NCBI GenBank assembly: GCA_963695875.1
Contig: CAVOID010000007.1
Span: forward strand, 1-64,000
Source of the DNA: an uncultured delta proteobacterium
GTDB taxonomy: Bacteria > Desulfobacterota > Syntrophia > Syntrophales > UBA2185
Direction of reading: 5' to 3'
Length of the DNA: 64,000 nucleotides
Every line of letters starts with the position of its first letter. The first letter of the stretch is position 1. The translations under genes were made by a program, and so were the position numbers. The notes under the pieces were generated by a model. The model ran no database searches and was not told the DNA's origin. It saw nothing but the letters and a program-made list of their open reading frames with translations. This document shows, piece by piece, positions 401 through 23,548 of this stretch.

Positions 401-409
401 CGTCCTTTT

Positions 410-1542: not shown

Positions 1543-1582
1543 ATAACTGTACTTGCGAAAGAACTCTCGACACTTACTTTCA

Positions 1583-3541: not shown

Positions 3542-3569
3542 TTTTAAGATAATTACCATTTTCTTAAAA
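3542..3569. repeat. dif-like 11-6-11 palindrome X
   Basis: TTTTAAGATAA-TTACCA-TTTTCTTAAAA. Confidence 0.7.
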
Positions 3570-3781
3570 AAATCGACTTTTTTTGTATATGGTTGAACTT
3601 TATACCTGCCTATTCATATCTTTTTGTGAAGACGTAATTGGTTTTTATTGGAAGGCAACCTGCTTGTCCGCCCTAGGAATTACCTCAAAAACAAAAAATG
3701 CAGTTGAAGAAAAATCTCCAACCGCTGCGAAGCCAGTAATGAAGGGTAATCACTTATTTAACCATCAAAACCACTCCGTCC

Positions 3782-5755
3782 TTATCGCAACCCCTCTGCC
3801 ACGACCTCGGCGATGTCCTTGACCGCAACTCTATCGGCATTCTTGTCTTTCAGGCCGTCTTCAAACATGGTCATGCAGTATGGGCATGTCACGCAGACTG
3901 TGTCAGGATTCTTTTTGAGGGCTTCGGATACTCGCTCCAGATTGATGCGGGTGCCGAGGTGCTCTTCCATCCACATCCTGCCGCCGCCTGCGCCGCAGCA
4001 GAAAGAATTGTTCCTGTTCCTTTCCATCTCTTCCGGAGGCTTGCCGGTAGCCTGGTTGATTATATTTCTGGGCGAATCATAGATATCGTTATGCCGTGCC
4101 GAGGTAGCAGGAATCATGGAACACGATCTTGCCAAGATTGACGCTTGTTCTTGAGCTTCAGCTTGCCCGTTGGGAGAAGATCATTGATGAGGTCGGCGTG
4201 ATGGATGACCTCTCCGTCGAAGCCATACTGCTTGTAGTCGTTCTTCAGGGTTGAAAAGCAGTGCGGGCACATGGTGATGATCTTCTTCACACCCTTGTCC
4301 TTGAACATCTTGACATTGTCCCTGGCCATCTTGTCGAAAACAAACTCGTTGCCGAGCCTGCGCAGGCTGTCACCGCAGCACATCTCGTCCTTGCCCAGGA
4401 TGCCCCAGGATATCTCCGGCTGCATCGAGGACCGCTGCCAAGTGCCACGGTGACCAGCTTGTTCCTGGAGTCGAAAGCGCCGGCGCACCCTACGAAGAGG
4501 AGGTACTCGGTGGATACCGTCGAACGGCTTCACCTGCATCTGGGAGCACCACTTGGTCCTCTCGGCGGTGCGATGCCCCACGGGTTGCTGCGCTGCTCCA
4601 TATTCTCGAAGAGGTTCAGCAGCTCTTCCGGAAAATGGGCCTTCATCTCCACCAGGTAGCGCCTGAGCTGGAGGATCTTGGGCATCTGCTCGATGAATAC
4701 CGGGCAGACTTCCATGCATGCACCGCAGGTAGTGCAGGACCAGATCTGCATCTTCGGTGATGCTGCCTTCGCCGTTATTGCCGATGAGCGGCAGCGTCGG
4801 CTTCTGGCTCTTCTTTCACGGCCGGGCCGTTGTCCAGCAGGTTGATCTTGAGATCATGGATGACCTGCCTCGGGTTCAACGGCTTGCCGGTATTTGCCGC
4901 AGGACATGCAATCTGGCACCTGCCGCACTCGGTACAGGCATAGGAATCGAAGAGGTCTTTCCAGGTAAACTGGTCGACGGTTTCCACACCGAATTTGTTG
5001 CCCTTTACAAACGTCTCCATAGGCAGCGTGTTGGCCTTCCCGAAACGCCTGAAGTAGCAGCTCGGGATGGAGGACAGTATGTGCATGTGCTTGCTGTACG
5101 GCAGATAGTTCAGGAAGGAGAGCAGCACGACGGCATGAACCCACCACCAGAAAGCGATAAGCGATTTCGCGCTCTCGGCTGTATGGCCGGCATATAATGA
5201 AGCACCTACGCATCGATGAGACGGGCATAAAGGCTGAAGCTGCTTCCTGGCCGACGGCTATCTCGATGCCGTGCAGGTTGAAGAAGGCGATCATCAGCAA
5301 GGCGATCAGGGAAAGGATGACATAGGCATCCAGTGTAATTGCCTCAGGATATGGAGGCCACAGCAGCCGCCTTATACCGGCGATAATTACGCAGACAAGG
5401 GCAATGAGCGATACGAGATCAAACAGGAATACGAGCGGGTGATAGATCGCGTTCGGCGAGCATCGAGAAGCTTATGGCCGGGAATATACCGTGTATGCAG
5501 AATTCGGCATTGGCAATCATCAGGATCATGAACGACCAGAAAAGGATGAAATGGTTGATACCGAAGGGCTTCTGCAAGACCCGCTTCTGGGCAAACGCAT
5601 AAATAAAGGTATCTCGAATCCTGGCAGCGACGTCCTTGAAACGGTCTTCCGGTTTGCCGATGGTCACCAGGCCGAAGCGTTGAAAGCAGCTCCACGCAAA
5701 CAGAAGAACAGCGGCAATAAAAACAACGGCAAAAATCAGTCGGATTGGGTATCAT
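3782..5755 (-). pseudogene. membrane Fe-S oxidoreductase (FadF/DUF224, HdrD-like CCG domains), multiply frameshifted
   Basis: Fragments carry CTECGRCQIACP, CTTCGACMEVCP, CCGD..RRLGNE, CPHC, CCGAGGGRMW and CPYC in different frames; the breaks may be read errors. Confidence 0.85.
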
Positions 5756-5784
5756 GAAAATATTCCTTCTCTCATACTTTCAGT

Positions 5785-7131
5785 CTAACAGACCTTCGGT
5801 GTCCCTCTCCGGGCCTTAACCTGCCGGACATGCTCCGTGATCGCCGGAACGATCTTGAAAAGATCGCCGACGATGCCGAATGTCGCCACCTCGAAGATCG
5901 GGGCCTCGCGATCGCGGTTGATGGCGATGATCATATCCGAGTCCTGCATGCCGACCAGGTGCTGAATGGCGCCGCTGATGCCGCAGGCGATGTAGATCTT
6001 CGGCCGCACGGTCTTGCCTGTCTGCCCGACCTGGCGTTCCACCGGCATCCACCCAGCGTCAACAGCGCTCCTGGATGAGGCTACCACGCCGCCCAGTTCG
6101 TCCGCAAGCTCCTGCAGGATTTTGAAGTTTTCTTTCGCCATCATGCCCCTGCCGCCGGAAACAATGTACTCCGCGCACCGACGATATCAACGCTGTCCTT
6201 TTGATCGGCATCACTGATGACATCCAGCACCTTGGTGAGGACGTCCTCTTCCTTCATGGTCATTTGTTCCCGGATGATTTCTCCAGTCGCATTCTCGATC
6301 CGGATAGGCATCGGCATGACGTGAGGACGGACCGAGGCCATCTGGGGCCGCCTTTGCTCGCAGACTATCGTTGCCATGATGTTCCCGCCGAAGGCCGGAC
6401 GCGTCTGCAGCAACAGTCCTTTCTCATCGATATCAAGGCCCGTACAGTCGGCTGTCAGACCGGTCCTCAGCTTTGTCGCAACAGCTCCGGCGAGATCCCT
6501 TCCCAGTCCGGTGGCTCCCATAAGGACGATCTCAGGTTTGTACTTTTCCACCAGGTAGCAGATGCTCTCGAGATAAGGGCCTGTCCGATAGTAATGACAG
6601 TACGGGATCATCGATGAGATATGCCTTGGTTGCCCCATAGGCGAATGCTTCCTGACAGAGCCTCTCCACATTGTGCCCGAGAACCACGGCGCACGATTCG
6701 ACCTGAAGCTGCGAAGCCAGTTGGCGCCGACTCCCAGGAGCTCCCAGGAGACCCTGGCAGGGATACAATCGGTCTGCTCGACAAAGACCCATACCCCCCG
6801 GTACTGGGCCAGATAATTCTTCAGCTTTGCCTCTTCGTAGTCTTCTTCCTCAACCGGTGCGCCCCCAATGCCCTTTTCCGCCGCAAGCTGCTTGAGGATT
6901 TCCATCTCCTCCGGGGTAAAGAACATCTCAAGGGCTTCAGCCGGGCAAATCTCAACGCATTTCTGGCAACCGATACATTTATCCGCAAGGATGATGGGCT
7001 CACCCTTTTCATTCATCTCAATCGCTTCCGCCAGGGCAGGCGCTCTGACAGCGCGCTCCGCAGGCAATACACTTGTTGGGGATGAGAGATGCTTTACCTC
7101 GCGGCTTCTTAACTTTTTTCGGTTTGTCCAT
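5785..7131 (-). pseudogene. etfA: electron transfer flavoprotein alpha with N-terminal 4Fe-4S domain, frameshifted
   Basis: [45 protein letters not shown]; several indels. Confidence 0.9.
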
Positions 7132-7167
7132 CTGTCTTGTTTCTATCGATATTCAGTTATTTCTTAA

Positions 7168-7983
7168 CTATCCCAGCGTCAGCAATTCCTTCTGGACCAG
7201 TTTTTCCACCAGCATTCCTGCGGTGCCGTTCGGGTCATTTACGCCATCACCAACGATCTCGCCCTTTTCGCGCTCAGGAGAGAATATTTTCCTCACCGCG
7301 GTAGGAGAACCCTTGAGACCGATCTGCTGGACATCAAGGTTCATAATCTTGTTGTCCCACAGGGTCAGGTCATGTTCCTGGGCCTCGAGGCGCATGGGGA
7401 CTGACGGATAGCGGGGTTTGTTGATCTCCCTGACTACGGATATCATCGCCGGCAGCTTGGCCTCGACGATCTCGTGACGTCCTTCGAGCTTCCTGCTCAC
7501 TCTGATCTTCTTGTTCCTGAGATCGATGTCATTGATGCGATCTACAAGGGTCAACGGGGCCAGACCGAGGCGGATCGCTATGCCGGGACCCACCTGGGCG
7601 GTATCGCCATCGATGGATTGCTTGCCGCAGAGCACAAGGGCAAGGTCATCTTCCTCAGCTAGCTTCATGATGGCCTTGCTGAGGACCAGGCTGGTGACCA
7701 GAGTATCTGCTCCGCTGAAGACACGATCCGATAGCATGATGGATTCATCCACACCCAGAGAAAGGGCCTTGCGCAGTGTCATCTCAGAATTGGGGGGACC
7801 CATGGAGATCGCCACCACCCGCGCTCCGAATTTATCCTTTATGCGGAGGGCCTCTTCCAGGGCATGGATATCAAAGGGATTCACGATAAAGGGTATCCCT
7901 TCCCGAACCAGGGAGTTGGTAACAGGATCGATTTTTACCTGAGTTGTGTCCGGCACCTGTTTGATGCAAGCAACGATGAGCAT
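7168..7983 (-). CDS. etfB: electron transfer flavoprotein beta
   Basis: CIKQVPDT, GADT, GKQSIDGDTAQVGP, GLKGSPT. Confidence 0.95.
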   Translation of the reverse strand: MLIVACIKQVPDTTQVKIDPVTNSLVREGIPFIVNPFDIHALEEALRIKDKFGARVVAISMGPPNSEMTLRKALSLGVDESIMLSDRVFSGADTLVTSLVLSKAIMKLAEEDDLALVLCGKQSIDGDTAQVGPGIAIRLGLAPLTLVDRINDIDLRNKKIRVSRKLEGRHEIVEAKLPAMISVVREINKPRYPSVPMRLEAQEHDLTLWDNKIMNLDVQQIGLKGSPTAVRKIFSPEREKGEIVGDGVNDPNGTAGMLVEKLVQKELLTLG

Positions 7984-8025
7984 TACTTATCCTTCTAAAA
8001 TTTTCCCATTCCCCTGCCTTCTTAC

Positions 8026-8511
8026 TCAATATTCGTCCAAAACAGAGAGCCCTCGCTCACCAATCAGAATAATCTCGGTATGGTTCAGACGGGTGGCTAT
8101 TACTTTTGCCGTGGCCTGCATGAAATTATATCCTAATGTAATGTCTTTATTCAGCAGCTCCCTGAGTTTAGCTCCATCGAAGGCAATGGCTTTCGAGTCA
8201 TCAATACATCGAGCTCCTAAGGTGTACACATAAGGCTCAATAACTGCTGACCATCCCATAGCATCTCCCTTTGTGATGAGATCCACAGTGACCTGCATTG
8301 GTGGTTTAGCAGTACCCATGTAGGTATCCATGACCAGAACAACCTTTCCCCCTGCCAACATGTAGAGGTTCTTCGCTGAATCTCCCTTTTTCCACAACTG
8401 GAAACCGGCCTTATAAGATTCTTCGGTAGCGATATCCGCCAGTTTTTTGATCTGTTCCTCACTGAACCCTTTGAAAAAATTGTATTGCTTTAAGAGATCT
8501 ACCGAAACCAT
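8026..8511 (-). CDS. stand-alone cyclic nucleotide-binding domain protein
   Basis: cNMP-fold pattern with GDAMGWSAV; no C-terminal HTH. Confidence 0.85.
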   Translation of the reverse strand: MVSVDLLKQYNFFKGFSEEQIKKLADIATEESYKAGFQLWKKGDSAKNLYMLAGGKVVLVMDTYMGTAKPPMQVTVDLITKGDAMGWSAVIEPYVYTLGARCIDDSKAIAFDGAKLRELLNKDITLGYNFMQATAKVIATRLNHTEIILIGERGLSVLDEY

Positions 8512-8922
8512 GAACTGTTACCTCCTTTCTGAATAGTTGGCATGCTTTTTTCCCCTACAGGAAGTGTTTTTCGAAATTGCATATATTATATTTTTAAATA
8601 CTTTTTTCCTTATAAATCCATCAGGCATATTCTGATTTCAACGGTCTAAATCCCTTAGTCAATAAAGGTCAGAGACAGACAGAGTTTTCTGACAGCAAAC
8701 CCATGAAATTCCTGTGTGGATAATTTGGATATAAAAGATGGCGTGACTTTTCTTGATTTTCACATGAAATGTTGGACTGACGGACTGACTAAGAAAAACA
8801 AAAGAGGAAGCCATCTGCATTTTACATAAACGGAAAGCAGACCGTCAAAGTTTCACATGTTTCTGTCGATTAGGAAGAAGGGAATGCAATTGACATCCAC
8901 ACAGATAGTTCATTTGCCAAAT

Positions 8923-8950
8923 TTTTAAGATTATCAGTATTCTCTTAAAA
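8923..8950. repeat. dif-like palindrome X
   Basis: TTTTAAGATTA-TCAGTA-TTCTCTTAAAA. Confidence 0.7.
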
Positions 8951-9116
8951 ATTTCATTTGCTGCCATACTAGGCGTAGTGGCAATCAAGATATCATAGAC
9001 TCATGAATATTTTATGCTCCGGCGCCAACTAATTTTTCCATGTTCGTCAGCAAGAGTGCCCAAGCGGAACCTTTGCCTTTCATCTCCTAAGTCTGTTTTT
9101 ATTAATGTACTTATAC

Positions 9117-9145
9117 TTGACATTTAGACGTCTAAATGGTAAATA
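9117..9145 (+). promoter_or_regulatory. sigma70-like promoter overlapped by a perfect 18-bp palindrome
   Basis: TTGACA 9117-22; CATTTAGACGTCTAAATG 9121-38. Confidence 0.55.
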
Positions 9146-9153
9146 CACTTCCC

Positions 9154-10308
9154 ATGATTGAGCGAACGTTTTGGATAAAACGGATTCAAGAGGCCTGGAA
9201 AAAGCGACCGATCGTATGGCTGTCGGGAGTTCGCAGGGTAGGGAAGACAACCTTAGCCCGGATGTTTCCCAAGGCAGTCTATCAAAATTGCGACCTGCCC
9301 TCAGTGGTGCGCCGATTAGTCGATCCGGAACCTTTCTACGACAGCCTCGATAAAGGGTCCATTGTTATCTTTGATGAAATCCACCGTGTAGAGGACCCGA
9401 GCCGTCTATTGAAAATTGCGGCAGACGCCTATCCGTACTTGAAAGTGCTCGCAACAGGCTCTTCAACGCTGGCGGCGACGAAGAAATTTCGCGATAGCCT
9501 GACGGGGCGAAAGCACATGATCTATTTGCCGCCGGTGCTCTGGAGCGAATGCATAGACAACTTCAACATAAAAGAACTGGACCGGCGATTGCTTCATGGA
9601 GGACTGCCGGAACCCTTGCTTTCGGATACGAAGCATGCCGCCTTTTTTTCGGAATGGATGGATAGTTTTTATGCCCGGGACATTCAGGAGCTTTTCAGTA
9701 TCCGCAACCGGACCGGCTTCATGAAGTTATTGCATTTGTTGTTTCGACAAAGCGGAAGTCTTATGGATTATACCAATCTGGCTCGATTAAGTGAATTAAG
9801 CAGACATACGGTAAAAGCGCACGTGGAAGCCATGGGTATTGCCCACGCAGTATTCCTGCTTCCTCCATTTCAGGGCGGGGGCCGCCGCGAAATTACGCGC
9901 AGACAGAAATGCTACGCCTTTGATACGGGGTTCGTAACGTTTGTTAAAGGTTGGGATACTATTCGTGATGACGATCGCGGTCTCTTGTGGGAACATCTGG
10001 CACTCGATATGCTGCGAACGCTAGTCGACGATCACAATGTGCTTTACTGGCGGGACAAATCCGGACGTGAGGTGGACTTTGTGGTCAGAGGCCAGGGGCA
10101 ACAAGCAAATGCCATTGAGTGCAAAATCAATCCTGATCACTTTGATCCTGCCAATCTTATGGTATTTCGATCGCTCTATCCTGAGGGGAAAAATTATGTG
10201 CTGAGTCCCAATATTAAATCCCCTTATCAGCGTCGTTATGAAAAAACCCTGATTCACTTTATATCGGTGGATCAGCTCTTTAAGATAAAAGAGAAGGGTT
10301 GTAGATAG
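9154..10308 (+). CDS. AAA ATPase with DUF4143 domain
   Basis: GVRRVGKT Walker A, IFDEIH Walker B, TGSS, GGLP, D.G, WRDKSGREVDF, IECK. Confidence 0.9.
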   Translation: MIERTFWIKRIQEAWKKRPIVWLSGVRRVGKTTLARMFPKAVYQNCDLPSVVRRLVDPEPFYDSLDKGSIVIFDEIHRVEDPSRLLKIAADAYPYLKVLATGSSTLAATKKFRDSLTGRKHMIYLPPVLWSECIDNFNIKELDRRLLHGGLPEPLLSDTKHAAFFSEWMDSFYARDIQELFSIRNRTGFMKLLHLLFRQSGSLMDYTNLARLSELSRHTVKAHVEAMGIAHAVFLLPPFQGGGRREITRRQKCYAFDTGFVTFVKGWDTIRDDDRGLLWEHLALDMLRTLVDDHNVLYWRDKSGREVDFVVRGQGQQANAIECKINPDHFDPANLMVFRSLYPEGKNYVLSPNIKSPYQRRYEKTLIHFISVDQLFKIKEKGCR

Positions 10309-10330
10309 GATCAAGAAAGATCACGGAAAG

Positions 10331-10828
10331 ATGATACTCCGACTCACACAAAGACTCTCAAAGAAACTCAGGATCACGCAACTGCACATCATTTCGCAGG
10401 ACGGGAATCCATATGCAGACTGGAGCGCCCATCTATTCACAGCACAACGTGTTCAATATATCATCCTGACCAACACCGTGTCTTTGTATTCCATGATTAT
10501 GTATGGGCGTGGCATGAGCAATGAAAAGAATTTTATTAAGGGAGTCCTGACCTACATAAAACAATTCATGGCCGCCGACGGTAATAAATCCATATTTGAA
10601 AAATACATTGAACCTCTCGCCGATGAAATATCATTCTCTAAGATAACGGATCGGAGAGTCATGGGATCAATGAATGACCTTATAGCTCAGGCGAAGGTCT
10701 ATCTCATCGAATGTCAACAATCGACTTTTCATGTTTCACTTCATCTGAATGAATCACCGATGTCGTATTTGAAGTATGGTCGTCCGAAAGATGCTTTCAA
10801 GGCGTTGAGTTTTGATAACAAAAAATAA
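10331..10828 (+). CDS. DUF6933-like hypothetical protein
   Basis: MILRLTQRL...W.AHLF...T.DRRV.GSMND pattern. Confidence 0.6.
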   Translation: MILRLTQRLSKKLRITQLHIISQDGNPYADWSAHLFTAQRVQYIILTNTVSLYSMIMYGRGMSNEKNFIKGVLTYIKQFMAADGNKSIFEKYIEPLADEISFSKITDRRVMGSMNDLIAQAKVYLIECQQSTFHVSLHLNESPMSYLKYGRPKDAFKALSFDNKK

Positions 10829-10849
10829 CCTTTCTCAATCTAAAAATGT

Positions 10850-11278
10850 CTAATCACCAACACTGATTTTGACATCATAAGGAGCGGGACGACCTTCGGC
10901 CCTTTCCAACCAATCCCTCAAACTTAAAAGAAATGTAGCCCATTTGGTACTGCAATGGTGCATAAATTCTGAGGGTTTCTTCCAGTTGGCGTGCGAGAAT
11001 AGGACAAAAGTTTGATCCTTTTTGGCTTTCAACTGAAAGGTCAAGTCTGTACCGAGCCACTCCTTAGGCCCCTTCACGCATTTCCATTTCACTAGTTTGT
11101 TAGGCTTTAACTCTACAACTCTCATGTCGGCGAACCCGAAGTGAATAATTCCACCTTGCTTGGCGTTCCCCTTAGTACCCACAATCCACCAATGAGAAAT
11201 TCCATCAATAGTGGAAAGCGCCTCAAAAACCTTTTTGGGTGTGGATCTAATTCCAACGCTGTGAAGAATATCAGGCAT
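10850..11278 (-). CDS. SRPBCC/AHSA1 domain protein
   Basis: KVFEAL..WW, EWLGT, HCSTKWATFLLSL. Confidence 0.85.
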   Translation of the reverse strand: MPDILHSVGIRSTPKKVFEALSTIDGISHWWIVGTKGNAKQGGIIHFGFADMRVVELKPNKLVKWKCVKGPKEWLGTDLTFQLKAKKDQTFVLFSHANWKKPSEFMHHCSTKWATFLLSLRDWLERAEGRPAPYDVKISVGD

Positions 11279-11318
11279 GGCTTCCCCTCCTTTCTCGGCG
11301 ATAAGCACCTTTTTCGAT

Positions 11319-12098: not shown

Positions 12099-12112
12099 AT
12101 TGACCTCCCGCC

Positions 12113-12472: not shown

Positions 12473-12539
12473 ATCGCACCTCCCGTCAAGTTTTTTATGT
12501 CCGCAACCCCCACTAGGCAGGGGCCAAGAATGCGCTTGG

Positions 12540-14485: not shown

Positions 14486-14533
14486 AATGATATAGAAAAT
14501 AGCCCCAAAAAACTACTACACTTACCTTATGTC

Positions 14534-14767
14534 GATTACAAGTTGAAATATTGGATAAATAGATGCAAATGGAAAACCAACATAACAGGAAGCTATACTC
14601 AGAAAGAACTTCAGCAAAAATACATAGTATGAAATCATCATATTTTTAAGAATAATTACCATTATCTTAAAGATAATCGGTAGTCGTGAAAGAATTCTTG
14701 CAACACTTGTTAACACCTACAAACAAACGGACTCAAGTCGGTTAAAGTTCATCGACTACCGATGAAA
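14534..14767 (+). repeat. A-N36-B, X palindrome, C-N35-A
   Basis: GATTACAAGTTGAA, N36, AACAGGAAG; X at 14645-72 (TTTAAGAATAA-TTACCA-TTATCTTAAAG); CCTAC 14716-20; GACTACCGATGAAA. Confidence 0.8.
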
Positions 14768-14904
14768 ACAAGTGATAGCCACTCCCTTGATCCACCACCA
14801 GCTTCTGATGGACGAAGCGGCAGAAATGGCAGTGCTTGCAAGAGAAGTCCAGGAGATACAAATAAAGATAGCTGAGGGAGTAGTCGCAAGCGGCCCGCCG
14901 CACA

Positions 14905-15479
14905 TCAGAATGGATTGTAGGTCCTGGTCTTGGTGTAGTGCATGTAGCCTATGCTTGCGCCAGCGCGCAGGCCCACGCCCAGCCGTATCGGCGCGAGGAT
15001 GACTTTATCGCGCTGCTGGTAATTGATGCCCGCGCCACCGACGAAGTAGAAGCTGCCGTCCACCGCCGGGTAACGCCGGAACAACTGCTCGCTGTTGTCG
15101 AGGTGATAGACCAACACGAAAACCTTGGCTGCATTGCCGCCGTAGTCAAAGCCGATGGAGGGGCCGCTCCAGTAAACCTTGCGACTCTCGCCGCTCTTGC
15201 GCATCAGCGTGCCGTCACCGTAACGCAGTCCCACCGTCAATGGCGCCGCTTCGCCTCCTGACCCTTGATATAGGCGTTCGGTCTGCCGTAGTCCTTAAAT
15301 GCTTTCTCGATTACTTTCGCAAGTCCTTCAGTGCTCTTGCCAAAAAATTCAGTGGCATCTTTGAGCACGGAATCCTGGTCGTAGGTATCGGCATCCTTGT
15401 TCTCAGCGGCTAAAGCAGGTACCACGGATAGCGCCACAGTGAGCATGATTGCCAGTAACTTAAGCATGAGTTTAGTCAT
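14905..15479 (-). pseudogene. DUF1134/EipA family protein, frameshifted near 15240
   Basis: GRPNAYI.GQE, then VGLRYGDG..YWSGPSIGFD and LAPIRLGVGLRAG in another frame. Confidence 0.85.
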
Positions 15480-15612
15480 CGTCTTCCTCCTGGGTTGAAA
15501 CTAGCGTTTGTTTGATATTTGACAAGAATCCGCTTCTTGGCGATCCAAATTTATCAAAAGAGTAGTTATTGTGTCAAGAAAAGATGGCCACAAAATGTGG
15601 GGGTGCTGATGA

Positions 15613-15834
15613 TATTTCCGATTGAAATGTAGCATGGTTAGGGAGAAATCAAGATTAACTCTCATAGGAAGAAAGTATCTGAGAAGAAGCTTCTGTTATG
15701 TGAGAGATGAAACACCGGATCGGCATAAGGGTGGTAGATTTAGCAGTTCCGAAAAAATGGTTATTGAAATTGCGTGTTACACCTACTACTGTTCAGTGGT
15801 TGAAAGTTGTCAGAAATGATAATTACCATTTGAA
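15613..15834 (+). repeat. A-N36-B ... C-N36-A
   Basis: TTTCCGATTGAA, N36, CATAGGAAG; CCTAC 15782-86, N36, TTACCATTTGAA. Confidence 0.75.
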
Positions 15835-15904
15835 TTGTAGTATACGATATTGCTAATGAACCAAGCGAAGATTCCTCGCATTCCTTAAAAGGATTCTATG
15901 CGGA

Positions 15905-17419
15905 TCAGTGTGTGAGACAGGCGTTCACTGCCGCGGATTTTTCGCCCATTATTACTTCGCCAAATTTATTAAGCACAAGAAAGCTCTGTAGATTTTCCCA
16001 TTTGTCTTTTTTATGGGCTGACTCGGAAAAATAGCTCTGTACGTCCACGTCTACATCGCCGTTGCCCTTGCTGTGTACAGCGGCCTCTACTATAAAGTGC
16101 CGCTCCGCTGAGCCACTACCTATTAATACCTGTCGGTCCAGTGTCAGATTGACGATGTTTACATCATTGCTGTCTTTGACCGGTTTGCCTGCTTCATTAA
16201 AAACGCGTATCATTTCATTACGCAAGTCTTGCGAAAAACGTATTCCAGCCGGTCCAAGCGACTTAGCACGGGCGTAGACCTCTTCCATTGCACAACCAAG
16301 CGCTTTCTGCCAGCCCCTCTGCGCCTTTTCAGCTTTAGCTTTGAATTCCCCTGAACCTACAGGATCAATTTGGGGAATACCTTTCAAGGTTGAAAGGGGA
16401 TTATGTCGATTCTGTTCATCTAGTTGACGGTCGCTCTCTGCTGCTTTTTGAAGCATTTCTTCCTTTGCGTGCATTCGCTGTTTTGATATTTCATCGACCG
16501 GGCGCATCACCTGCTGGTTGTCCTGAAGAGACCGTACTTGTTTTTGCTCTTGTTGTTCATTGGAAGCACTGGATGAGGTTACAGGAGGAACGGCTGTTTT
16601 GGCCTTCATCGCTGCAGGTTTTGCCTCATGCGTCTGTATTTTATCCTTCACCACATTAGGGTCAACAACATAGGGAGCTTTTTTGTCGCTTAAGTCAACG
16701 ATGTTCTGGTCGCCCATGATTAGTGGCAGAGCATCGCCTGGATTAGCAGGAGCCACCGCGGTCGCCGAATAACCCTGCCGTGGTCTTAAATCAACAACTT
16801 TTGAATCATTATTAACGCTGGTAGCTGAGCCACCCAAGCCAAAAAATGACGTCCCTTGAGGGCGAAGGCCGTCGTCACCATCTCCCAGCATTAAGGGAAG
16901 ACTATGCCCTTGACCATCAAATCCTTCTGAGAGCTGGAGCTGTGAGGAAAGACGATCATATTGCTCCTGCCGCTTACGGGCCTCCTCAGCCGCTCGTATG
17001 CGGGCTTCTTCCTCAGCCCTTTGGCGGGCTATTTCGGCTTGCCTTGGGGCTTCGGCGGCCATTGCAGCTGCCTCCGCCCGTTTACGAGCTTCTTCCTGAG
17101 GATCACCGAACAGCGCCTTGCCGATTGACTGCCCAATGCTGTATCCAAGGCCATAAAAGGGTTGGTAAAGCCCACCAACGGCTGCACCGCCGCCACCGGA
17201 GGAAGAGCCTCCTTTCCGCTCGCTCATGCATTGGTTGTAGCAGAGCTGGTAATTACACCACTTAGATTCAACAGGATGGAAACTACCCCCGACACTTCTA
17301 CAGTCGCAGGGTGCAGCTGCGCAGCCCCCTTGTATATCGCCAGCGTATGTTAAGTTCATGGTTAGAGTAGTACATAATATAACTAAGCTTGAGATAAACA
17401 ATTTTTTCTTCATCTTCAT
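15905..17419 (-). CDS. secreted hypothetical protein with Cys-rich N-terminus and coiled coil
   Basis: Signal peptide, six N-terminal Cys, Gly linker, E/A/R-rich coil. Confidence 0.75.
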   Translation of the reverse strand: MKMKKKLFISSLVILCTTLTMNLTYAGDIQGGCAAAPCDCRSVGGSFHPVESKWCNYQLCYNQCMSERKGGSSSGGGGAAVGGLYQPFYGLGYSIGQSIGKALFGDPQEEARKRAEAAAMAAEAPRQAEIARQRAEEEARIRAAEEARKRQEQYDRLSSQLQLSEGFDGQGHSLPLMLGDGDDGLRPQGTSFFGLGGSATSVNNDSKVVDLRPRQGYSATAVAPANPGDALPLIMGDQNIVDLSDKKAPYVVDPNVVKDKIQTHEAKPAAMKAKTAVPPVTSSSASNEQQEQKQVRSLQDNQQVMRPVDEISKQRMHAKEEMLQKAAESDRQLDEQNRHNPLSTLKGIPQIDPVGSGEFKAKAEKAQRGWQKALGCAMEEVYARAKSLGPAGIRFSQDLRNEMIRVFNEAGKPVKDSNDVNIVNLTLDRQVLIGSGSAERHFIVEAAVHSKGNGDVDVDVQSYFSESAHKKDKWENLQSFLVLNKFGEVIMGEKSAAVNACLTH

Positions 17420-17468
17420 GCTCCTCTCATTTGTCTTCTTCTATCGACTTCTTTCTTACAGCCGCCTT

Positions 17469-18458
17469 TTATTTTACTCTTCTTTTAGGTGTCTCCGGCT
17501 CCTGCATGGCTTCTGAGGGGGATGGCGTCTCCTTTGCCTTTTCCTCCCAGAGGTACATCTTCTCCCGCGCAACTTTGGCGTTTGCGGCATCGGGAACGAG
17601 TTCCAGATAACGTTTCATATATAAGGCAGCCCATTTGTACCTCTGCAATTCTCCTGCAAGCATAGCGGCATTAAACTGCCCCTGCGGCCACAAAGGTTCA
17701 ATGGTCAATCCTTTTCTGTAATACTCAAGAGCTTTTTCAAAGTCTTTATTATTGAACGCGTCCTCAGCCACTACCCGGTATCGCTGCACATCTTCGGGCA
17801 GGGCGGGCTTCACCAGCAACTCGCGATACCTCTTGGCTTCATTTGCGAATGCGGTCTCTTCCACTTTCCGTCTAGCCTCCTCTGACTGCCTCCTGGCTTC
17901 CTCTTCTATCTTCAAGCAAAGATCTTCTATTGCATATTTCATAGCCTTGTTAATTGACACGCTGTCAGTCTCCGCAGTAAACCTGCTACCCACTCCCTTT
18001 ACGATGCCTTGTCCAGAGAAATTACCAAGATCCAACCCATCTTTGGAAATCAAAGTTGCGTGCATATTAACTATGTAATCAAAATAATCGTAGTTAGTTA
18101 AATGGTATCTAACATCAACATTCAATATACTATCCGATGGGCTATCAAGAACAGAGTGAAATATATTACGTGTATTTAGATATGTTATGAGTATTTCCTT
18201 TAAAGACTCCCTATTCACAAATATCGGAGTAGTAGAATTTGGATTTTCTTGTTTAACTTCTTTAAGTTCTACTCGCACTGAAAGCGGTAATTGAACCATG
18301 CTTTTTGACTCAGCCTGAAAAGGCGTAATCGTTATAGTACGGGAAAAAGCACAGCCCGTCATCAGTAAGCCAATCAAAAGGTAAACGCATATTTTCCATA
18401 AGGAACGGCCTCGCCTCCCCGTCACTCTATTAATACCAAAAAGGCTTAAATAATTCAT
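17469..18458 (-). CDS. lipoprotein with C-terminal TPR domain
   Basis: LMTGC lipobox; TPR-like C-terminus. Confidence 0.8.
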   Translation of the reverse strand: MNYLSLFGINRVTGRRGRSLWKICVYLLIGLLMTGCAFSRTITITPFQAESKSMVQLPLSVRVELKEVKQENPNSTTPIFVNRESLKEILITYLNTRNIFHSVLDSPSDSILNVDVRYHLTNYDYFDYIVNMHATLISKDGLDLGNFSGQGIVKGVGSRFTAETDSVSINKAMKYAIEDLCLKIEEEARRQSEEARRKVEETAFANEAKRYRELLVKPALPEDVQRYRVVAEDAFNNKDFEKALEYYRKGLTIEPLWPQGQFNAAMLAGELQRYKWAALYMKRYLELVPDAANAKVAREKMYLWEEKAKETPSPSEAMQEPETPKRRVK

Positions 18459-18459
18459 T

Positions 18460-19419
18460 TCATTTGCCCTCCACCGTCAACTTTTGTTGCATCTCCTCCT
18501 CCGCCTTTCCCTCCCAGAGATACATTTTCTCACGCCCGATGTTGGCGTTCTTGGCGTCGGGAACGAGTTCCAGATAATGTTTCATATATAATGCGGCCCA
18601 GTCGTACCAACGCAATTCACCTGCAAGCATAGCGGCATTGAACTGCCCCTGCGGCCACAAAGGTTCGATTGCCAACCCCTTACTGTAGTACTCGAGAGCT
18701 TTCTCAAAGTTCTTATTATTGAAAGCATCTTCAGCCATTACTCGGTATCGCTGAACATCTTCGGGCAGGGCCGGCTTCACCGGCATCTCGCGGTATCTCT
18801 CTGCCTTTTTTGCGAATGCGGCCTCGGCAGCAAGATCATCCCCGGGTGCGGCTGGTGTGTAACCTTCAGCGCAGCGTTTGAGCACATAGAACGCATTCGC
18901 CAAAGAAACTGCGTCATCCTTATTCATTGTGCCGAAATCAATATCGTTTCTATAGTATCTGGATTCACCCAAAGTGGGTGTGCCTTTAGCCTCGACCTCT
19001 ATATTGCCCAGGAATACGTAAAATATTCCGCTACCCCCCTTTCTGACACTAACGTTCATTGATTTAAAATATGACGTACAGAAATTATGTATGTAATTGT
19101 TACTATCAAACTCAATAGAAGGTCTCCAATAGTCATCCCAAGCTACTTTGTCGGAACCTATTTTAATGCTATTAATTAAATGAGTGCCGCCATAAGTGTA
19201 GCCGCCTGTCTTCCTAGTTGTGTTCCTATCGTCGACACGATACATCACCGTGAGTTTTTTCATAGACTCTATTTTTTTGTGCGCCCGCGAACACGACATC
19301 ATCGTTATCGTTGAGTCTTTTGGCTGATAAACGACTTCCAAATCAGCAGCCATGCTCGGTTGAATACTGACAAGTAACGTCATGACGGCTACTGCCAGGA
19401 TAAACAATTTTTTCTTCAT
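18460..19419 (-). CDS. secreted protein with C-terminal TPR domain
   Basis: Signal peptide; C-terminus nearly identical to both neighbours. Confidence 0.8.
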   Translation of the reverse strand: MKKKLFILAVAVMTLLVSIQPSMAADLEVVYQPKDSTITMMSCSRAHKKIESMKKLTVMYRVDDRNTTRKTGGYTYGGTHLINSIKIGSDKVAWDDYWRPSIEFDSNNYIHNFCTSYFKSMNVSVRKGGSGIFYVFLGNIEVEAKGTPTLGESRYYRNDIDFGTMNKDDAVSLANAFYVLKRCAEGYTPAAPGDDLAAEAAFAKKAERYREMPVKPALPEDVQRYRVMAEDAFNNKNFEKALEYYSKGLAIEPLWPQGQFNAAMLAGELRWYDWAALYMKHYLELVPDAKNANIGREKMYLWEGKAEEEMQQKLTVEGK

Positions 19420-19432
19420 CTTGATACTCCTT

Positions 19433-20380
19433 TCATTCGCCCGCACCCGTCAGCTTCTGCTGCTCCTCCTTAGCCTTTTCCTCCCAGAGGTACATCTTCT
19501 CCCGCGCAGCGTTGGCGTTCTTGGCATCGGGAACGAGTTCCAGGTAACGTTTCATATATAAGGCGGCCCATTTGTACGAGTGCAATTCACCTGCCAGCAT
19601 AGCGGCATTGAACTGCCCCTGCGGCCACAAAGGTTCAATTGCCAACCCTTTTCTGTAGTAATCGAGAGCCTTCTTGAAGTCTTTATTATTGAACGCGTCC
19701 TCAGCCACTACCCGGCATCGCTGCACATCTTCTGGCATCGCCGGTTTCACCGGCATCTCTCGGTACCTCTTAGCTCCATTTGCAAATGCTGCCGAGAAAG
19801 CAGGATCTTCAGGGGTGTAGCCTTCGGCGTAGCGCTTGAGCACATAGAAGGCGTTGACCAAAGAGACGGCTTCATCCTTTCTAAGTGCATCCCAAAAAGA
19901 AGCATTACCTTCATGAGTGTATCTGTGCTTCCCAGTCTCATAATGCACAGGCTCACCACCACCCAGTAATACATTGTATGTCCCATACGTACTTTTCACA
20001 ACATTAGGGTCCATCGATTTTAAATATGATGTATATGACCACACTACCTCCGGGTAATTCTTAGTAAAAGTTATCTTGTCGGAACTTATTTTAATGTCCT
20101 TGAGTATAGTGGCGTTATAGGTATAGTCAGTATATCCGGGAGGAATCGGAAGGCGGCGGTTTTCCATAGACTCTATTCTTCTTTTCGCCTGCGAATATGA
20201 CATCATTAGCAACAAGTCGTCATTCGGCGCATAAACTACTTTGTCTTCTTTATTGCCAGCAGCTAAACTCGGTTGAATACCGACAAGTAGGGTCATGAGG
20301 GATAATACCAGGGACAGATACGCAATAGCGTACAAATGGAAACGAAATGGTTTCATAAAAGCCTCCTTTATCGACCCCAT
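19433..20380 (-). CDS. secreted protein with C-terminal TPR domain
   Basis: Signal peptide; paralog of 18460-19419. Confidence 0.8.
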   Translation of the reverse strand: MGSIKEAFMKPFRFHLYAIAYLSLVLSLMTLLVGIQPSLAAGNKEDKVVYAPNDDLLLMMSYSQAKRRIESMENRRLPIPPGYTDYTYNATILKDIKISSDKITFTKNYPEVVWSYTSYLKSMDPNVVKSTYGTYNVLLGGGEPVHYETGKHRYTHEGNASFWDALRKDEAVSLVNAFYVLKRYAEGYTPEDPAFSAAFANGAKRYREMPVKPAMPEDVQRCRVVAEDAFNNKDFKKALDYYRKGLAIEPLWPQGQFNAAMLAGELHSYKWAALYMKRYLELVPDAKNANAAREKMYLWEEKAKEEQQKLTGAGE

Positions 20381-20685
20381 ATGTTAATATTTTTTGATAA
20401 GACATTATTTTCTGACAACATATATTGCATATAAAACAGGTTGATCAGATATGGCTGCGTTATCATACCCCCGCACTTATCGTAACATATTACCCATTCA
20501 TCTTTATAATATAAATTTATTTACGTGATAATACTCTTATAAACATCATTAAGACGCAGCGATTTTTATCTTAACAGTCTCTACTAAACAAAATCACTCA
20601 TACTTACCTATAGTTTCATTATCGTCATATTTTTTCAAATATTGAGGGACATTTAATAATTAATCAGGATAAATTTCAGAAAACA

Positions 20686-20716
20686 GAAGGCAGGTTCGAT
20701 TGACTCTGCCTTTTTT
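20686..20716 (+). terminator. intrinsic terminator hairpin
   Basis: AAGGCAG...CTGCCTT followed by a T run; related to hairpins at 43011 and 45660. Confidence 0.6.
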
Positions 20717-20731
20717 ATTTACCAGATTACT

Positions 20732-20790
20732 GATTAACGATTGTAATCTTCTATCTATTGCTGAAATCAAATTTTATCGCTTTCAGGAAG
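20732..20790 (+). repeat. A-N36-B site
   Basis: GATTAACGATTGTA, N36, TTCAGGAAG. Confidence 0.75.
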
Positions 20791-20840
20791 ATATCAAGGC
20801 TGTACTATATGTGCTAACAGAAAACTTGATGAAATACCGG

Positions 20841-21446
20841 GTCGGCCTAAGGGTCTTAGGAAGCCAACCGAAAATGGCACTTTAAAAAAGTTGTTTTCAG
20901 CTACTAAAGGTGAAACCGAGATTGTCAAGCTTTCCAATCTTTAAATTTATTTTTAACTCTTTATTAATTCTTCTAATTTTTCAACTTTTTCGTTTAGAGT
21001 AAAAACTAATTTTTCCAAAAGGTCTATTCTATTATAAAGTTTCCTTGCGATTTGTTTCTCGCAAAAAACGATAATCTCTTTCTCTTTTGTGCCAGTCACG
21101 TTTCCGTCCATAGATTGCCTCCATGTCCAGTCTAAAAATTAATATATGAATCAACTTTTCCTGCTGGTCTTGGTCGTAAACAGGGATATCTGCTGTTTCA
21201 CCTTCTTGCTTTTGCATTTCGGACATGTGGCTTTGCCCTTATCATGTTCGCTGAAACTCTGTATCAATGAAAACTCTTTTTTGCAGGCTTCGCAAAGATA
21301 CTCATACGTTGGCATGCTTTCACCTCCACATTAGGATTATTTATATTGCTATTTTTGATTTATATTTTAATTAAATGAGATATATTGTCAACTTCAGTAT
21401 TTCCAAGTTTTGATCTTAATATACCACACCTAAGTCATTTATTAAA
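20841..21446. repeat. ~600-bp direct repeat, copy 1 (copy 2 at 34328-34931)
   Basis: Near-identical sequence by direct reading. Confidence 0.95.
21151..21315 (-). CDS. FmdB-family zinc ribbon protein
   Basis: MPTYEYLCEACKKEF...CPKC; GGAGG RBS. Confidence 0.85.
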   Translation of the reverse strand: MPTYEYLCEACKKEFSLIQSFSEHDKGKATCPKCKSKKVKQQISLFTTKTSRKS

Positions 21447-21479
21447 GAATGCTTAAACCGGAAGAACAGGGGGCCTGAT

Positions 21480-21850
21480 TATTTGCAAAACTTTGCAAAA
21501 GAGATTCCATGATTCTCTGATAAGGGGTTTTAGGAGAGTCATGCTGTTTAATAGTTTTAGAACCGATACGTTCTTTGGCGGTGAATTTTACGGAGGTGCA
21601 GGAGAAGTTATGGAAGAGTCTCCATTCATTGCGATAGAGGTTATTAAGAAGCGCGATGACCCTGGGATTATCTGATCTCTGATAACCGAGCCATTGACAT
21701 ACGTGCGTCCAGTTTTTCTGTTCTACGTGTGCGTTATCATCTTTGTGATACGGTCTGCTGCGGGTGAATTTTACGGGGTGTTTTTGTTGGGTAAAATGTC
21801 TTACGAGGTGATAATTTAAGAACTCCGAGCCCGTTATCGCAATCGAAGCC
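21480..21850 (-). pseudogene. DDE/rve integrase (ISNCY-type) fragment
   Basis: GFDCDNG / SEFLNYHL..FTRSRPYHKDDNAHVEQKNWTHV, frameshifted and truncated. Confidence 0.75.
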
Positions 21851-21943
21851 CTCAGAGTGCTAGAAAACTAATTCTCTAGATGGACCAGTTTTGGGGGAAC
21901 CATCAGTACGTTCTGGGGGCAGGTCAACGGGCAGCCCAAGTTA

Positions 21944-22636
21944 TTAGTAAACGTCGGTTAGGTGAAAAAGTACAGTCAAGTGAAGGTTCATAATGCCGTA
22001 TCGGTCTAAAGGGATCATCACAGCATGATCTTCTTTCAGACCGGGAGGAAATGCTACTGAAATAGGTACTTCTCCAACAATGGCACCTTCACCGGCACAT
22101 CGAGAGCACTCATAAGGCCCCACACCGCCATATCCTTGGCATATTTTACAGATGGCTCTTACTGGAACCATGACCCTGGCATTTCCACCAGAAAGCGCCT
22201 GCTCATTTGTCAGAGGAACCTCAAGTGTTAGATTTTGTACCCGCCCCGATTTGGGGTAATTGAGAGTGGAAAAATTGGTCCACAACCAATCAAATATCTC
22301 GTCGAATGATGGCGTAAAGGTCTGAAACGACCTTACAAGCGAGATTTTACCAATATTAGTTGGCTGTTTCTCGGGAATGAGAGGTTCTGGCTGTGGATAA
22401 AACTTATGCCTGACAGGTACTCTTGTCTTTGCGTTTATTAAAATTTGATCGTATTGTCGTCGTTCCTGGTCATCGCTTAATACGGAGTAGGCTTCCTGAA
22501 TTTGCTGGAATATATGAATTCCACCTGAGTAGCGGTCTGGATGGAATTCTTTTACAAGGCGACGGTATGCTGCTCTAATTTCGTCTGCTTTCGCGCCGGA
22601 CGAAATGCCGAGAATTACATAGTAACTCTTGGCCAT
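21944..22636 (-). CDS. J-domain protein with partial zinc finger
   Basis: YY.ILG, HPD motif, CKICQGYG..CSRCAGEG. Confidence 0.85.
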   Translation of the reverse strand: MAKSYYVILGISSGAKADEIRAAYRRLVKEFHPDRYSGGIHIFQQIQEAYSVLSDDQERRQYDQILINAKTRVPVRHKFYPQPEPLIPEKQPTNIGKISLVRSFQTFTPSFDEIFDWLWTNFSTLNYPKSGRVQNLTLEVPLTNEQALSGGNARVMVPVRAICKICQGYGGVGPYECSRCAGEGAIVGEVPISVAFPPGLKEDHAVMIPLDRYGIMNLHLTVLFHLTDVY

Positions 22637-22783
22637 ACTCAACCTCCTTATCTTGATGAAATTCCCCTCAGGCGGTGTGTAGTTTGCTCGCAGGTAATTT
22701 TTATGTAAAGAGAGTTTAAGTATAAAACATTTTGATTAAGAAGTATGAACAACCACACGGGATAGGTGGCCAGAGCATGGACT

Positions 22784-23116
22784 CTATATTCCCAGATTAG
22801 AGAGCATCCTGCAGAAGGTATTGATAATCTCCACCAGCCTTGGATGAGATGTTTCGAAGCCCTGAACCGATGAGGCCAGACCTTCAATCGACAAATTGAG
22901 GAGCGCCGGATTCTTTTCGCTGCGTGTGGCTTCGCGGGCTGATAATTCGGCAAATCCTGTTATGCTTTCCGCCTGCTCATGGTGAGTCTGGGAAAGGTCG
23001 GCAATTTCCGTCCTCAGGGTCGTCAGGAGGGTCAACAGCTCGGCTTTGTCACTCTCTTTGACCGCTTCGCTCTGCTTCAGCCTCTCTTCAATCTTGTCAA
23101 GATGATCCTGAATCAT
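22784..23116 (-). CDS. DUF4404-like protein
   Basis: C-terminal FETSHPRL...LSNLGI. Confidence 0.7.
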   Translation of the reverse strand: MIQDHLDKIEERLKQSEAVKESDKAELLTLLTTLRTEIADLSQTHHEQAESITGFAELSAREATRSEKNPALLNLSIEGLASSVQGFETSHPRLVEIINTFCRMLSNLGI

Positions 23117-23180
23117 TTCCTTCCACCTTAATTCGCCTTCATTCCAAATGTCCCCCGAACCTCTCCGCCCCAGAGATAAA

Positions 23181-23209
23181 AGCATACGATGGGTGGCCTT
23201 GTGTGTCAA
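23181..23209 (-). promoter_or_regulatory. repeated sigma70 promoter P
   Basis: TTGACA-N17-TATGCT. Confidence 0.7.
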
Positions 23210-23294
23210 TGAAAAATGAACCACAGGTATGTATTATCATCTGTTATCTCAAATGCTTTATAATGACAGAAGTGTGTGGACTTCAGTCAATAAA

Positions 23295-23548
23295 GATAAT
23301 CATTTGAAAGGATGGATCAATGTTAAAAATGCCGGCCGCTTTGTTTCAGGAAGAACGGATTACACTTAGTTGACTGACGAATATTTTTAAGATTATCAGT
23401 ATTATCTTAAAAATGATCGGCACAGTGCAGATTGCCGCATGAAGAACATACAACGAGAGGAATCAGCGGATAAGCCCTTGCAACACTTGTTAACGCCTAC
23501 GAGTCAATATATTCATGAAGCCGGGAAAACTGAAGATTACCAATTGAA
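23295..23548 (+). repeat. A-N36-B, X palindrome, C-N36-A
   Basis: GATAATCATTTGAA, N36, TTCAGGAAG; X at 23385-412 (TTTTAAGATTA-TCAGTA-TTATCTTAAAA); CCTAC 23496-500, N36, TTACCAATTGAA. Confidence 0.85.

Follow-up and report, generated by a model that had tools for sequence, protein, structure and literature searches.

Copies of a 28-bp palindrome in a Syntrophales genome

We analysed the first 64,000 nucleotides of contig CAVOID010000007.1 (the window, C7:1-64000 in our numbering of contigs) from the genome of an uncultured Syntrophales bacterium. The assembly (GCA_963695875.1; G000 among the genomes compared) comprises 2.86 Mb in 16 contigs, is estimated to be 82.6% complete, and has its closest relatives among uncultured Syntrophales and Syntrophaceae from peat, fen and sediment. 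The subject of this study is a 28-bp palindromic site that recurs between the genes of the window and that an initial annotation had likened to the dif and pdif sites of Xer recombinases. The copies in the window are the following.

1514..1544, plus strand: copy disrupted by an insertion sequence (IS); only CTTAAAAAT (1536-1544) lies outside the IS, followed by a diverged R1-type flank
3542..3569, plus strand: 28-bp palindromic site, centre TTACCA, exact pattern match
8923..8950, plus strand: 28-bp palindromic site, centre TCAGTA, exact pattern match
14644..14672, plus strand: 29-bp copy with an extra left-arm base, centre TTACCA, found in a scan at 3 mismatches
23385..23412, plus strand: 28-bp palindromic site, centre TCAGTA, exact pattern match
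54050..54077, plus strand: doubtful degenerate copy, inside or at the edge of an open reading frame (ORF) call

The minus-strand unit between sites 3542 and 8923 (3782-8511) contains a cNMP-binding gene, etfB, Fer4-etfA and CCG-domain genes, with several split frames, and is indeed bracketed by the two sites as the initial annotation had proposed. Site 3542 lies between a terminator-like hairpin of this unit (3725-3700, minus strand) and a promoter-like element, TCGACA-17-TATGTT (3526-3498), which reads into an HU-like gene (3410-3132). Site 8923 separates the cNMP-binding gene at the head of the etf unit from an ATPase gene divergent to it, and sites 14644 and 23385 both have a gene start on one side and a gene end on the other. 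All four are found 133-413 nt upstream of minus-strand genes.

The pattern TTTTAAGATWA-N6-TTHTCTTAAAR on which the initial annotation was based matches exactly at 3542, 8923 and 23385, and did not occur in any of 100 dinucleotide-preserving shuffles. A copy claimed at 14645 is present, but it is not an exact match. The 'half site at 1532' is real and represents the remnant of the copy that was disrupted by an IS110-family element, while the 'degenerate copy near 54050' could be located, but is counted as doubtful with 4 of its 16 outer bases mismatched. As had been noted, the centres alternate along the window (TTACCA, TCAGTA, TTACCA, TCAGTA), and all four sites have one orientation.

When the whole genome was scanned with at most 2 mismatches allowed in the outer 16 bases, 34 hits were obtained, of which 11 were retained as members of the family: C4:306892; C5:133477; C7:1514, 3542, 8923, 14644 and 23385; and C11:195262, 197858, 218012 and 223920. 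These form two clusters (C7, C11) and two lone copies (C4, C5). Nearly all of the 23 dropped hits had 2 mismatches and lacked a family-type centre or flank, and two of them were kept sites read at another spacing. The copy at 14644 including its flank shows 96% identity over 82 nt to C11:223916-223996. In the comparison set of 31 Syntrophales genomes the strict pattern TTTTAAGA-N12-TCTTAAAA was present in 13, as opposed to none for the reversed control pattern; it occurs in 11 of the 18 further genomes of this family and in 1 of the 12 that represent other families of the order. G013 and G018 are the richest in sites, 9 copies occur in each of two genomes, and site 8923 with an identical right flank is also present in G001, G013 and G018. 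Among metagenome contigs at least 121 stretches matched a longer pattern, 80 of which were fetched, with a scan of the neighbouring genes at 78 loci; at least 80 metagenome contigs carry the site. The palindromes are thus real and occur far beyond chance. The half site alone is not enriched, with 24 occurrences in the genome versus a mean of 12 (maximum 24) for shuffled 10-mers and 16 for the reversed word. No Rfam family reached gathering scores within the window, and full-text literature searches with the arm words and for palindrome cassettes in defence islands returned no account of this site among the matches listed. A single viral-contig match, in a giant-virus bin, was taken as chance, and a phage link was rejected.

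Anatomy and polarity of the sites

Of the 55 copies with a 12-nt spacing that we aligned, 46 came from relatives and 9 from this genome. The two outer arms of a site (TTTTAAGA / TCTTAAAA) are alike, in agreement with the initial annotation. The dif-like 11-6-11 format fits these sites, and a 12-4-12 reading fits them equally well. The eight outermost bases of either side hardly vary, which in part reflects their use as the search criterion, and the best copies have inner ATAA/TTAT. At positions 17-19 the bases ATT are kept in 51, 52 and 47 of the 55 copies, respectively, whereas the mirror positions 10-12 are variable; accordingly, the site is asymmetric and has polarity. The central six bases fall into recurrent classes, namely TTACCA (13 copies), TCAGTA (12), CGTCAA (9) and TGCATA (8), followed by CATACA (4), CACACC (3) and 6 single cases. 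These classes recur across genera.

Mirror complementarity is low, being found for positions 9/20 in 14 and for positions 10/19 in 22 of the 55 copies. This argues against selection for a hairpin and points to protein binding. Single-stranded DNA folds of the sites with 70 nt on either side gave only a short, weak core stem (−1.2 to −9.4 kcal/mol) and revealed no common extended structure. Together, the folds and the absent mirror covariation led us to reject the idea of an attC-like element or a terminator. Small ORFs run through one type of flank (J, see below) and the site, but by our reading their frame is not kept between copies. Extra half-site-like copies lie beside many sites.

Sites were oriented by a rule of our own, using the centre class or, failing that, the ATT asymmetry. 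Neighbouring sites on the same contig then point in the same direction in 16 of 18 pairs, as do all 8 C7 and C11 sites of this genome (binomial p ~0.001; related genomes are not independent in this count).

Short flanks are reassorted around the sites

The 37-55 nt on either side of the sites group into families, among them R1, R2, J, a, b, h and k. The window holds the following flanking arms.

3498..3541, minus strand: R2 arm with the promoter-like TCGACA-17-TATGTT; arm cluster 2, 7 copies
8951..9000, plus strand: arm 'a', upstream of an ATPase/DUF6933 gene pair; arm cluster 3, centre TCAGTA in 4 of 4 copies
14673..14721, plus strand: R1 arm, a 49-nt conserved flank found at 12 sites; arm cluster 0
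23348..23384, minus strand: arm 'b', a 37-nt flank common to sites of G013 and G018 that have other far-side partners; arm cluster 5
23413..23500, plus strand: diverged R1-like arm ending in CTTGCAACACTTGTTAACGCCTAC

In all 12 copies R1 follows the centre, when the latter is read as TTACCA, CGTCAA or TGCATA, and it abuts the 3' ends of genes. The J arm (11 copies) is always located on the side opposite R1. In the relatives, R2 precedes a gene for a secreted phospholipase D (PLD)-like nuclease, which is followed by an HU gene. That the flanks reassort is evident from the TCAGTA sites, where the flank pairs are f-a and b-e in G000, b-a in G018, and c-a and c-d in G013. Likewise, the left flank of C11:223920 recurs at C11:197858, and the right one at C7:14644. 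The identity of the inner arm bases follows the flank (for R1, TTAT in 9 of 12 copies; for R2, TTC, TTG or TTT), which places the switch point in or near the centre.

Sites mark the borders of transcription units and defence modules

The position relative to genes was examined for 135 distinct sites pooled from all sources, using ORF calls of at least 100 aa. All but one (134) lie outside these ORFs. Gene orientation could be classified at 82 sites, the others being at a locus edge (44) or without a neighbour within 700 nt (9). Genes are in tandem at 40 of the 82 sites, convergent at 22 and divergent at 20; C11:195262 and C11:197858, for example, lie between convergent gene ends. The initial annotation had named a fixed promoter position as the finding that would make the palindrome an operator, and the 22 convergent cases do not fit such a position. 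A classical operator would be expected to avoid convergent gaps, which makes a plain operator unlikely; rather, the sites mark transcription-unit borders whatever the direction of the genes.

Inside islands, the sites separate transcription units and defence modules (Hma/Qat, TIR, AbiE, restriction-modification). This is clearest on contig C20 of G013, where six sites divide a stretch of ~40 kb that starts with an integrase gene. The modules match Hma with embedded Qat (16 kb), a TPR-CHAT-MotB protein, a TIR-domain protein with a large partner, a TPR protein, and a block with a serine recombinase and two AbiE pairs. In the window, the pair of ATPase (AAA_14/DUF4143) and DUF6933 genes to the right of site 8923 matches the candidate defence families PDC-S01 and PDC-S63 (PADLOC). 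Site neighbours in the relatives and at the 78 metagenome loci include restriction-modification, SIR2, HEPN, reverse transcriptase, AAA_13, toxin-antitoxin and Prim-Pol/DUF927 genes, as well as transposases and integrases.

The etf block (3761-7995) has an 87% identical counterpart beside an integrase fragment in a genome from another genus, whereas same-genus genomes have only 71-75% matches. The ATPase pair (9105-10824) is 95% identical to its copy in that other genus. These identities, which exceed the same-genus match of the etf block, indicate that the region is horizontally mobile. On contig C11 of G013, the 29 bp that separate a TTACCA from a TCAGTA site contain only a GC-rich hairpin. 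The arrangement resembles an 'empty' slot of the site pair that brackets 5.4 kb and 8.7 kb in the window.

Insertion sequences at the sites

Insertion sequences aim at the sites. The element that disrupts the first copy in the window is the following.

1..1535, minus strand: IS110-family element; transposase 410-1447 (Pfam DEDD_Tnp_IS110, Transposase_20)

It shows 99.5% identity to C8:1-1535 and ends at 1535, inside site copy 1514. A second IS110-family type is present at 29993-31686, where it is frameshifted, and at C11:223982-225675 (98.5% identical). Both copies lie directly after TTGTTA(A)CACCTACA, which in C11 represents the last bases of the R1 arm, and this suggests a target of ~14 nt for this type. 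The end of the second type also resembles the outer part of R1-type flanks. Furthermore, an IS3-family element starts ~110 bp from C4:306892, and 4 of the 7 IS110-family genes of the assembly are in or beside the two site clusters. In Acinetobacter, insertion sequences that target pdif sites are known (PMC10132070).

The palindrome is distinct from the chromosomal dif

A scan of the assembly with the canonical dif-arm motif found ATGTCTTATAAGATATGTTATGTAAACT as the only perfect match; it lies at C8:248972-248999, outside the window. The host dif thus reads ATGTCTTATAA GATATG TTATGTAAACT. Of the 31 related genomes, 28 carry its core, ATAA-GATAT(G/A/C)-TTATGTAAACT, or, in G022, a one-base variant. 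The core is single in 25 of the 28, and in G003 and G029 there is a further match that has a different centre. The comparison with the chromosomal dif that the initial annotation had suggested therefore shows that the palindrome is a different site, which is not the chromosomal dif. The Xer homologs of the host are encoded at C8:43312-44199 (295 aa) and C12:47268-48248 (326 aa), which we take from their signature motifs to be XerD-like and XerC-like, respectively. An agreement at 9 of 11 positions holds only for the XerD arm quoted in the initial annotation; against the organism's own dif the palindrome arm TTNTCTTAAAA matches the XerD arm at 7 of 11 and the XerC arm at 6 of 11 positions in our alignment. 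Of the bases at which the palindrome differs from the host dif arms, the outer ones are invariant in the 55 aligned copies.

A site for a single recombinase, which had also been suggested, finds no backing in the gene content: no such recombinase is encoded near any copy in the genome, and none of the 31 genomes has a XerS ortholog over the cut-off of model NF003462. With the general family PF00589, six tyrosine recombinase genes were found in this genome. The initial annotation was therefore partly right in form, having recognized a recombination-type site with alike arms that brackets modules, and its link to Xer and dif is not supported. Its pdif-like modules are borne out by the format and the bracketing, but not by a connection to the host Xer proteins or by the direction of neighbouring sites.

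Candidate enzymes and the search for exchange

Two small recombinases are encoded next to sites in other genomes. A tyrosine recombinase of ~205 aa starts 50 nt from the site in metagenome locus L130, and lies ~125 nt from TCAGTA sites on contig C90 of G014 and contig C132 of G016, where both genes are broken; an intact copy is encoded at C68:31854-32462 of G014. In G013 (C20:38117-38722) and G018, a TCAGTA site has a gene for a 201-aa serine recombinase of the resolvase/invertase type at a distance of ~0.6 kb, and a 131-aa ORF separates the two. Its matches in the Protein Data Bank (PDB) are Gin and gamma-delta resolvase (E 6e-11 to 1e-6), and the right flank at these two loci is homologous to a flank in G014 and G016. 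In the present genome the sole clear PF00239 match, C9:246993-247646, is far from any site.

Two other proteins were considered and rejected. The 230-aa tyrosine recombinase encoded at C5:1379-2071 occurs in 5 of the 31 genomes, is missing in the two site-richest ones, and has an inverted repeat of its own (TTTTCTATTGAGT ... ACTCAATAGAAAA), which is conserved just upstream of the gene. Homologs are present in G006, G014, G015 and G029; the one in G014 adjoins an apparent tRNA gene, so that a small integrative element is likely. The PLD-like protein is found in 10 of the 13 site-bearing genomes and in 7 of the 18 others, and its gene lies ~30-110 nt downstream of the site at 10 of the 78 scanned metagenome loci. 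It was dismissed as a DNA recombinase because of a signal-peptide-like hydrophobic stretch at its N-terminus, which leads us to read it as a secreted nuclease.

Two apparent traces of exchange had other explanations. One filled/empty hit proved to be no more than the duplicated end of a gene. In run X3, a contig links 14650 with 23380, but only 30 letters fall on the short side and these are explained by the shared palindrome. No public run held more than 0.34 of the sampled words in its contigs, the uncovered parts being uninformative.

Interpretation of the sites

The sites are conserved and polar, they are present only at transcription-unit borders inside islands, and their flanks reassort. 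Our tentative interpretation, to which we give a little less than an even chance, is that the palindromes are the crossover or junction sites of a cassette system with a logic like that of dif modules or integrons, served by a putative recombinase and with the centre classes as compatibility groups. Two copies of one protein would bind the two alike outer arms (TTTTAAGA / TCTTAAAA). The asymmetric inner part, with ATT on one side only, would give polarity, and only sites with the same 6-8-nt centre, of which there are few classes, would recombine. Heterospecific lox or FRT sites, for comparison, recombine only between equal centres. Differing neighbouring centres (TTACCA ... TCAGTA ... TTACCA ... 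TCAGTA) would protect a module from loss, and swaps would still be possible with a module bracketed by the same centre pair. Strand exchange at the centre, and the enzyme that would perform it, are what we infer. The copies in this genome may be orphan sites. A more far-reaching proposal is possible but doubtful: a cassette-exchange system, so far undescribed, of anaerobic Deltaproteobacteria-type bacteria, in which polar 28-bp sites would bound defence and accessory modules and at least 6 mutually exclusive centre classes would form a counterpart of heterospecific lox/FRT exchange. It would be run by a cassette-borne small recombinase or by an enzyme family that has so far escaped recognition.

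Several observations speak against such a cassette system. No enzyme is tied consistently to the sites, and close forms of the candidates are not encoded in this genome. The ~205-aa tyrosine recombinase is present in 4 of 339 genomes of the class that were checked for this small subfamily, and 4 of its 7 copies have no site nearby. Of the 13 site-bearing genomes, only 2 encode a close form of the 201-aa serine recombinase, and the present genome is not one of them. Contig C7 lacks tyrosine recombinase genes altogether, and none of the six in the present genome is closer than ~85 kb to a site on its own contig. No recombination event was seen, and a module that is present in one case and absent in another between two sites was not observed among the fetched loci and five genomes. 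In addition, the flanks are themselves short modules (37-55 nt) that are broken at their outer ends too, and the blocks common to different genera (3761-7995; 9105-10824) end at gene ends, not at palindromes; both features imply that exchange is not restricted to the palindrome. Relative to its R2 flank, the centre at 3542 is inverted, which is not the case at the 6 other R2 sites. It should also be noted that the polarity across centre classes depends on an orientation rule that we chose ourselves and on related genomes that are not independent. Lastly, the metagenome loci L112, L117, L142, L146, L150, L160, L163, L170 and L176 represent one conserved locus next to Prim-Pol/DUF927 and DNA methylase genes, with a perfect palindrome and a third half site abutting it. 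Here the flanks are constant and the central 4 nt vary (GCAT, ATGT, GTGT, GTGC), as expected for an uncontacted spacer.

Such a spacer would be in line with an operator for a dimeric transcription factor at island promoters such as R2, an explanation that we regard as improbable. Outer arms that stay invariant at the conserved metagenome locus while the centre varies would suit it, as would the position of the four window sites upstream of minus-strand genes, the PLD-like nuclease gene shortly downstream at some metagenome loci, and the fixed distance to the R2 promoter-like element (by our count, ~64 nt separate the expected start from the site centre upstream of it). However, this fixed distance is found in copies of one homologous flank, which are hence not independent, and the sites are as frequent between convergent gene ends, as at C11:195262 and C11:197858, as they are between divergent starts. 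Moreover, the recurrence of centre classes across genera and their stable linkage to particular flanks are not accounted for, no regulator gene travels with the sites, and the half site alone is not enriched. Somewhat less unlikely, though still on the unlikely side, is a boundary element at which no strands are exchanged and to which a DNA-binding or nucleoid-associated protein of the host binds. It would be a mosaic intergenic repeat like BIME/REP, a palindrome with interchangeable short flanks that was spread and reassorted by homologous or illegitimate recombination and makes a good IS target by chance. This would accommodate the separable flank modules (R1, R2, J, a, b, h, k) in their many combinations, the half-site-like copies beside many sites, the strictly intergenic position in every gene orientation, the HU-like gene behind the R2 flank here and in relatives, and the lack of a consistently found recombinase. 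IS110- and IS3-family elements in or near the sites agree with it as well, REP/BIME being targeted likewise. Yet there are ~2-11 copies per genome, in islands only, as opposed to hundreds in REP families, and the sole Y1 transposase gene (C4:140166) is not near any site. A weak core stem without hairpin covariation is at odds with such repeats, and a boundary element has no need for polarity, same-direction arrays or recurrent centre classes.

The use of the palindromes as pdif-type sites by the host XerC and XerD appears very unlikely. It would explain the absence of a dedicated enzyme, since XerC-like and XerD-like genes are present in every genome, and it is compatible with the 11-6-11 format, the inner ATAA/TTAT of the best copies and the accessory-gene modules between sites. 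Nonetheless, a separate conserved dif (ATGTCTTATAA GATATG TTATGTAAACT) exists, which is single in 25 of the 28 relatives that have it, and while this dif is found in nearly all genomes, the palindromes are found in only 13 of 31. The arms are alike and offer no separate XerC side, and their low similarity to the host arms (7/11 and 6/11) goes together with invariance of the differing outer bases. The direction of neighbouring sites also disagrees: in dif modules neighbouring sites alternate in orientation, and here they point the same way.

How defence islands are assembled and reshuffled is largely unexplained beyond integrons, phage and satellite hotspots, and the dif modules of Acinetobacter. 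A short, conserved, polar border site in uncultured peat and sediment syntrophs would provide a handle on this, since it predicts both ends of a module and would help to mine unknown defence genes between sites. If the centres are compatibility groups, they would provide a natural set of orthogonal recombination sites. If the sites are only protein-binding boundary elements, they would still serve as markers of mobile islands and of IS110 target choice.

Further features of the site-bearing regions

Eight stand-alone cNMP-binding-domain proteins of 139-168 aa, often encoded beside dodecin genes, are present in the palindrome islands (8026-8511, 40200-40685, 40717-41136; C11:197203-197709, 222998-223444 and 226120-227607). 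No DNA-binding domain was detected in the eight. A 0.6-kb repeat with 92-97% identity occurs at 20841-21450, 34328-34935 and C11:219736-220339, all three in site-bearing regions and apparently with small minus-strand ORFs. Three tandem paralogues of ~320 aa with weak TPR matches are located at 17469-20380, their DNA being 83-86% identical over 300 nt.

A promoter-like block, TTGACA-17-TATGCT/TATACT with the kept spacer CACAAGGCC..., was found at 23181-23209, 27670-27704, 32597-32631 and 39400-39434 (all minus strand) and at 48727-48769 (plus strand). The genes behind it are DUF4404, PEMT, an unknown gene, rubrerythrin and TerC/DUF475, and judging from these genes the block may mark a stress regulon. 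A companion repeat lies upstream of it (13320, 23291, 32639, 36475). This repeat, the only candidate seen for the motif A to which the initial annotation had related the palindromes, has TTACCA in 1 of its 4 copies.

Genes split into two overlapping frames are 3782-4719 (CCG-domain), 5785-7067 (etfA), 14905-15479 (EipA), 51762-53529 (aldehyde ferredoxin oxidoreductase) and 59108-63206 (GH94). The split frames of the window are either assembly indels or pseudogenes. Between 54000 and 62000, over genes for GH94-type glycosyl hydrolases, the G+C content is 0.53-0.63 versus ~0.44 elsewhere.

Comparison with known systems

With BIME/REP elements the sites have in common a palindromic unit with interchangeable short flanks and a strictly intergenic position, BIME/REP also being preferred IS targets. 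They differ in that there are ~10 copies and not hundreds, which are A/T-rich, without hairpin covariation, confined to accessory islands and without a nearby Y1 transposase.

In integron cassette arrays the attC sites measure ~57-141 nt, form an extended imperfect hairpin, and are targeted by IS110-family elements. As in such arrays, gene units with defence or unknown genes are separated here by same-direction recombination-type sites in variable regions. Unlike attC, the present sites have 28 bp and a weak short stem without an extended attC-like structure; they separate multi-gene units with promoters and terminators of their own and fall into distinct centre classes.

Site I of small serine recombinases is similar in being a dyad of ~28 bp with conserved outer bases, an A/T-rich inner part and an asymmetric middle, and a resolvase/invertase-type gene lies ~0.6 kb from a TCAGTA site in G013 and G018. 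This gene is, however, present in close form in 2 of the 13 site-bearing genomes only, and accessory subsites are at most hinted at by the half-site-like repeats.

The XerS/difSL system of lactococci and streptococci likewise has two imperfect inverted arms, which are served there by one tyrosine recombinase. In our alignment the L. lactis difSL, as given in PMC2965235, matches the site arms at 10 of 13 positions on the left and 9 of 11 on the right, a similarity that in A/T-rich sequences may be due to chance. The difSL-like arms could be the mark of a homodimeric tyrosine recombinase or such a chance match. According to PMC1914069, xerS adjoins difSL, and a small tyrosine recombinase gene adjoins the site in 3 of the loci studied here. 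On the other hand, difSL is single and lies beside xerS at the terminus, as opposed to 11 island copies in this genome, and XerS is found in none of the 31 genomes over the NF003462 cut-off, a canonical dif, XerC and XerD being present besides.

The dif modules of Acinetobacter, whose pdif sites are used by XerC/XerD, likewise have multi-copy 28-bp 11-6-11 sites that bracket accessory modules, are targeted by IS elements, and differ in module combination between replicons (PMC10132070, PMC6449649, PMC13141974). The present sites are instead chromosomal and belong to Syntrophales; their arms are alike and do not resemble the host dif, and a dependence on Xer is not indicated. Neighbouring sites point in the same direction, and the modules that they border are often whole defence systems of up to 16 kb.

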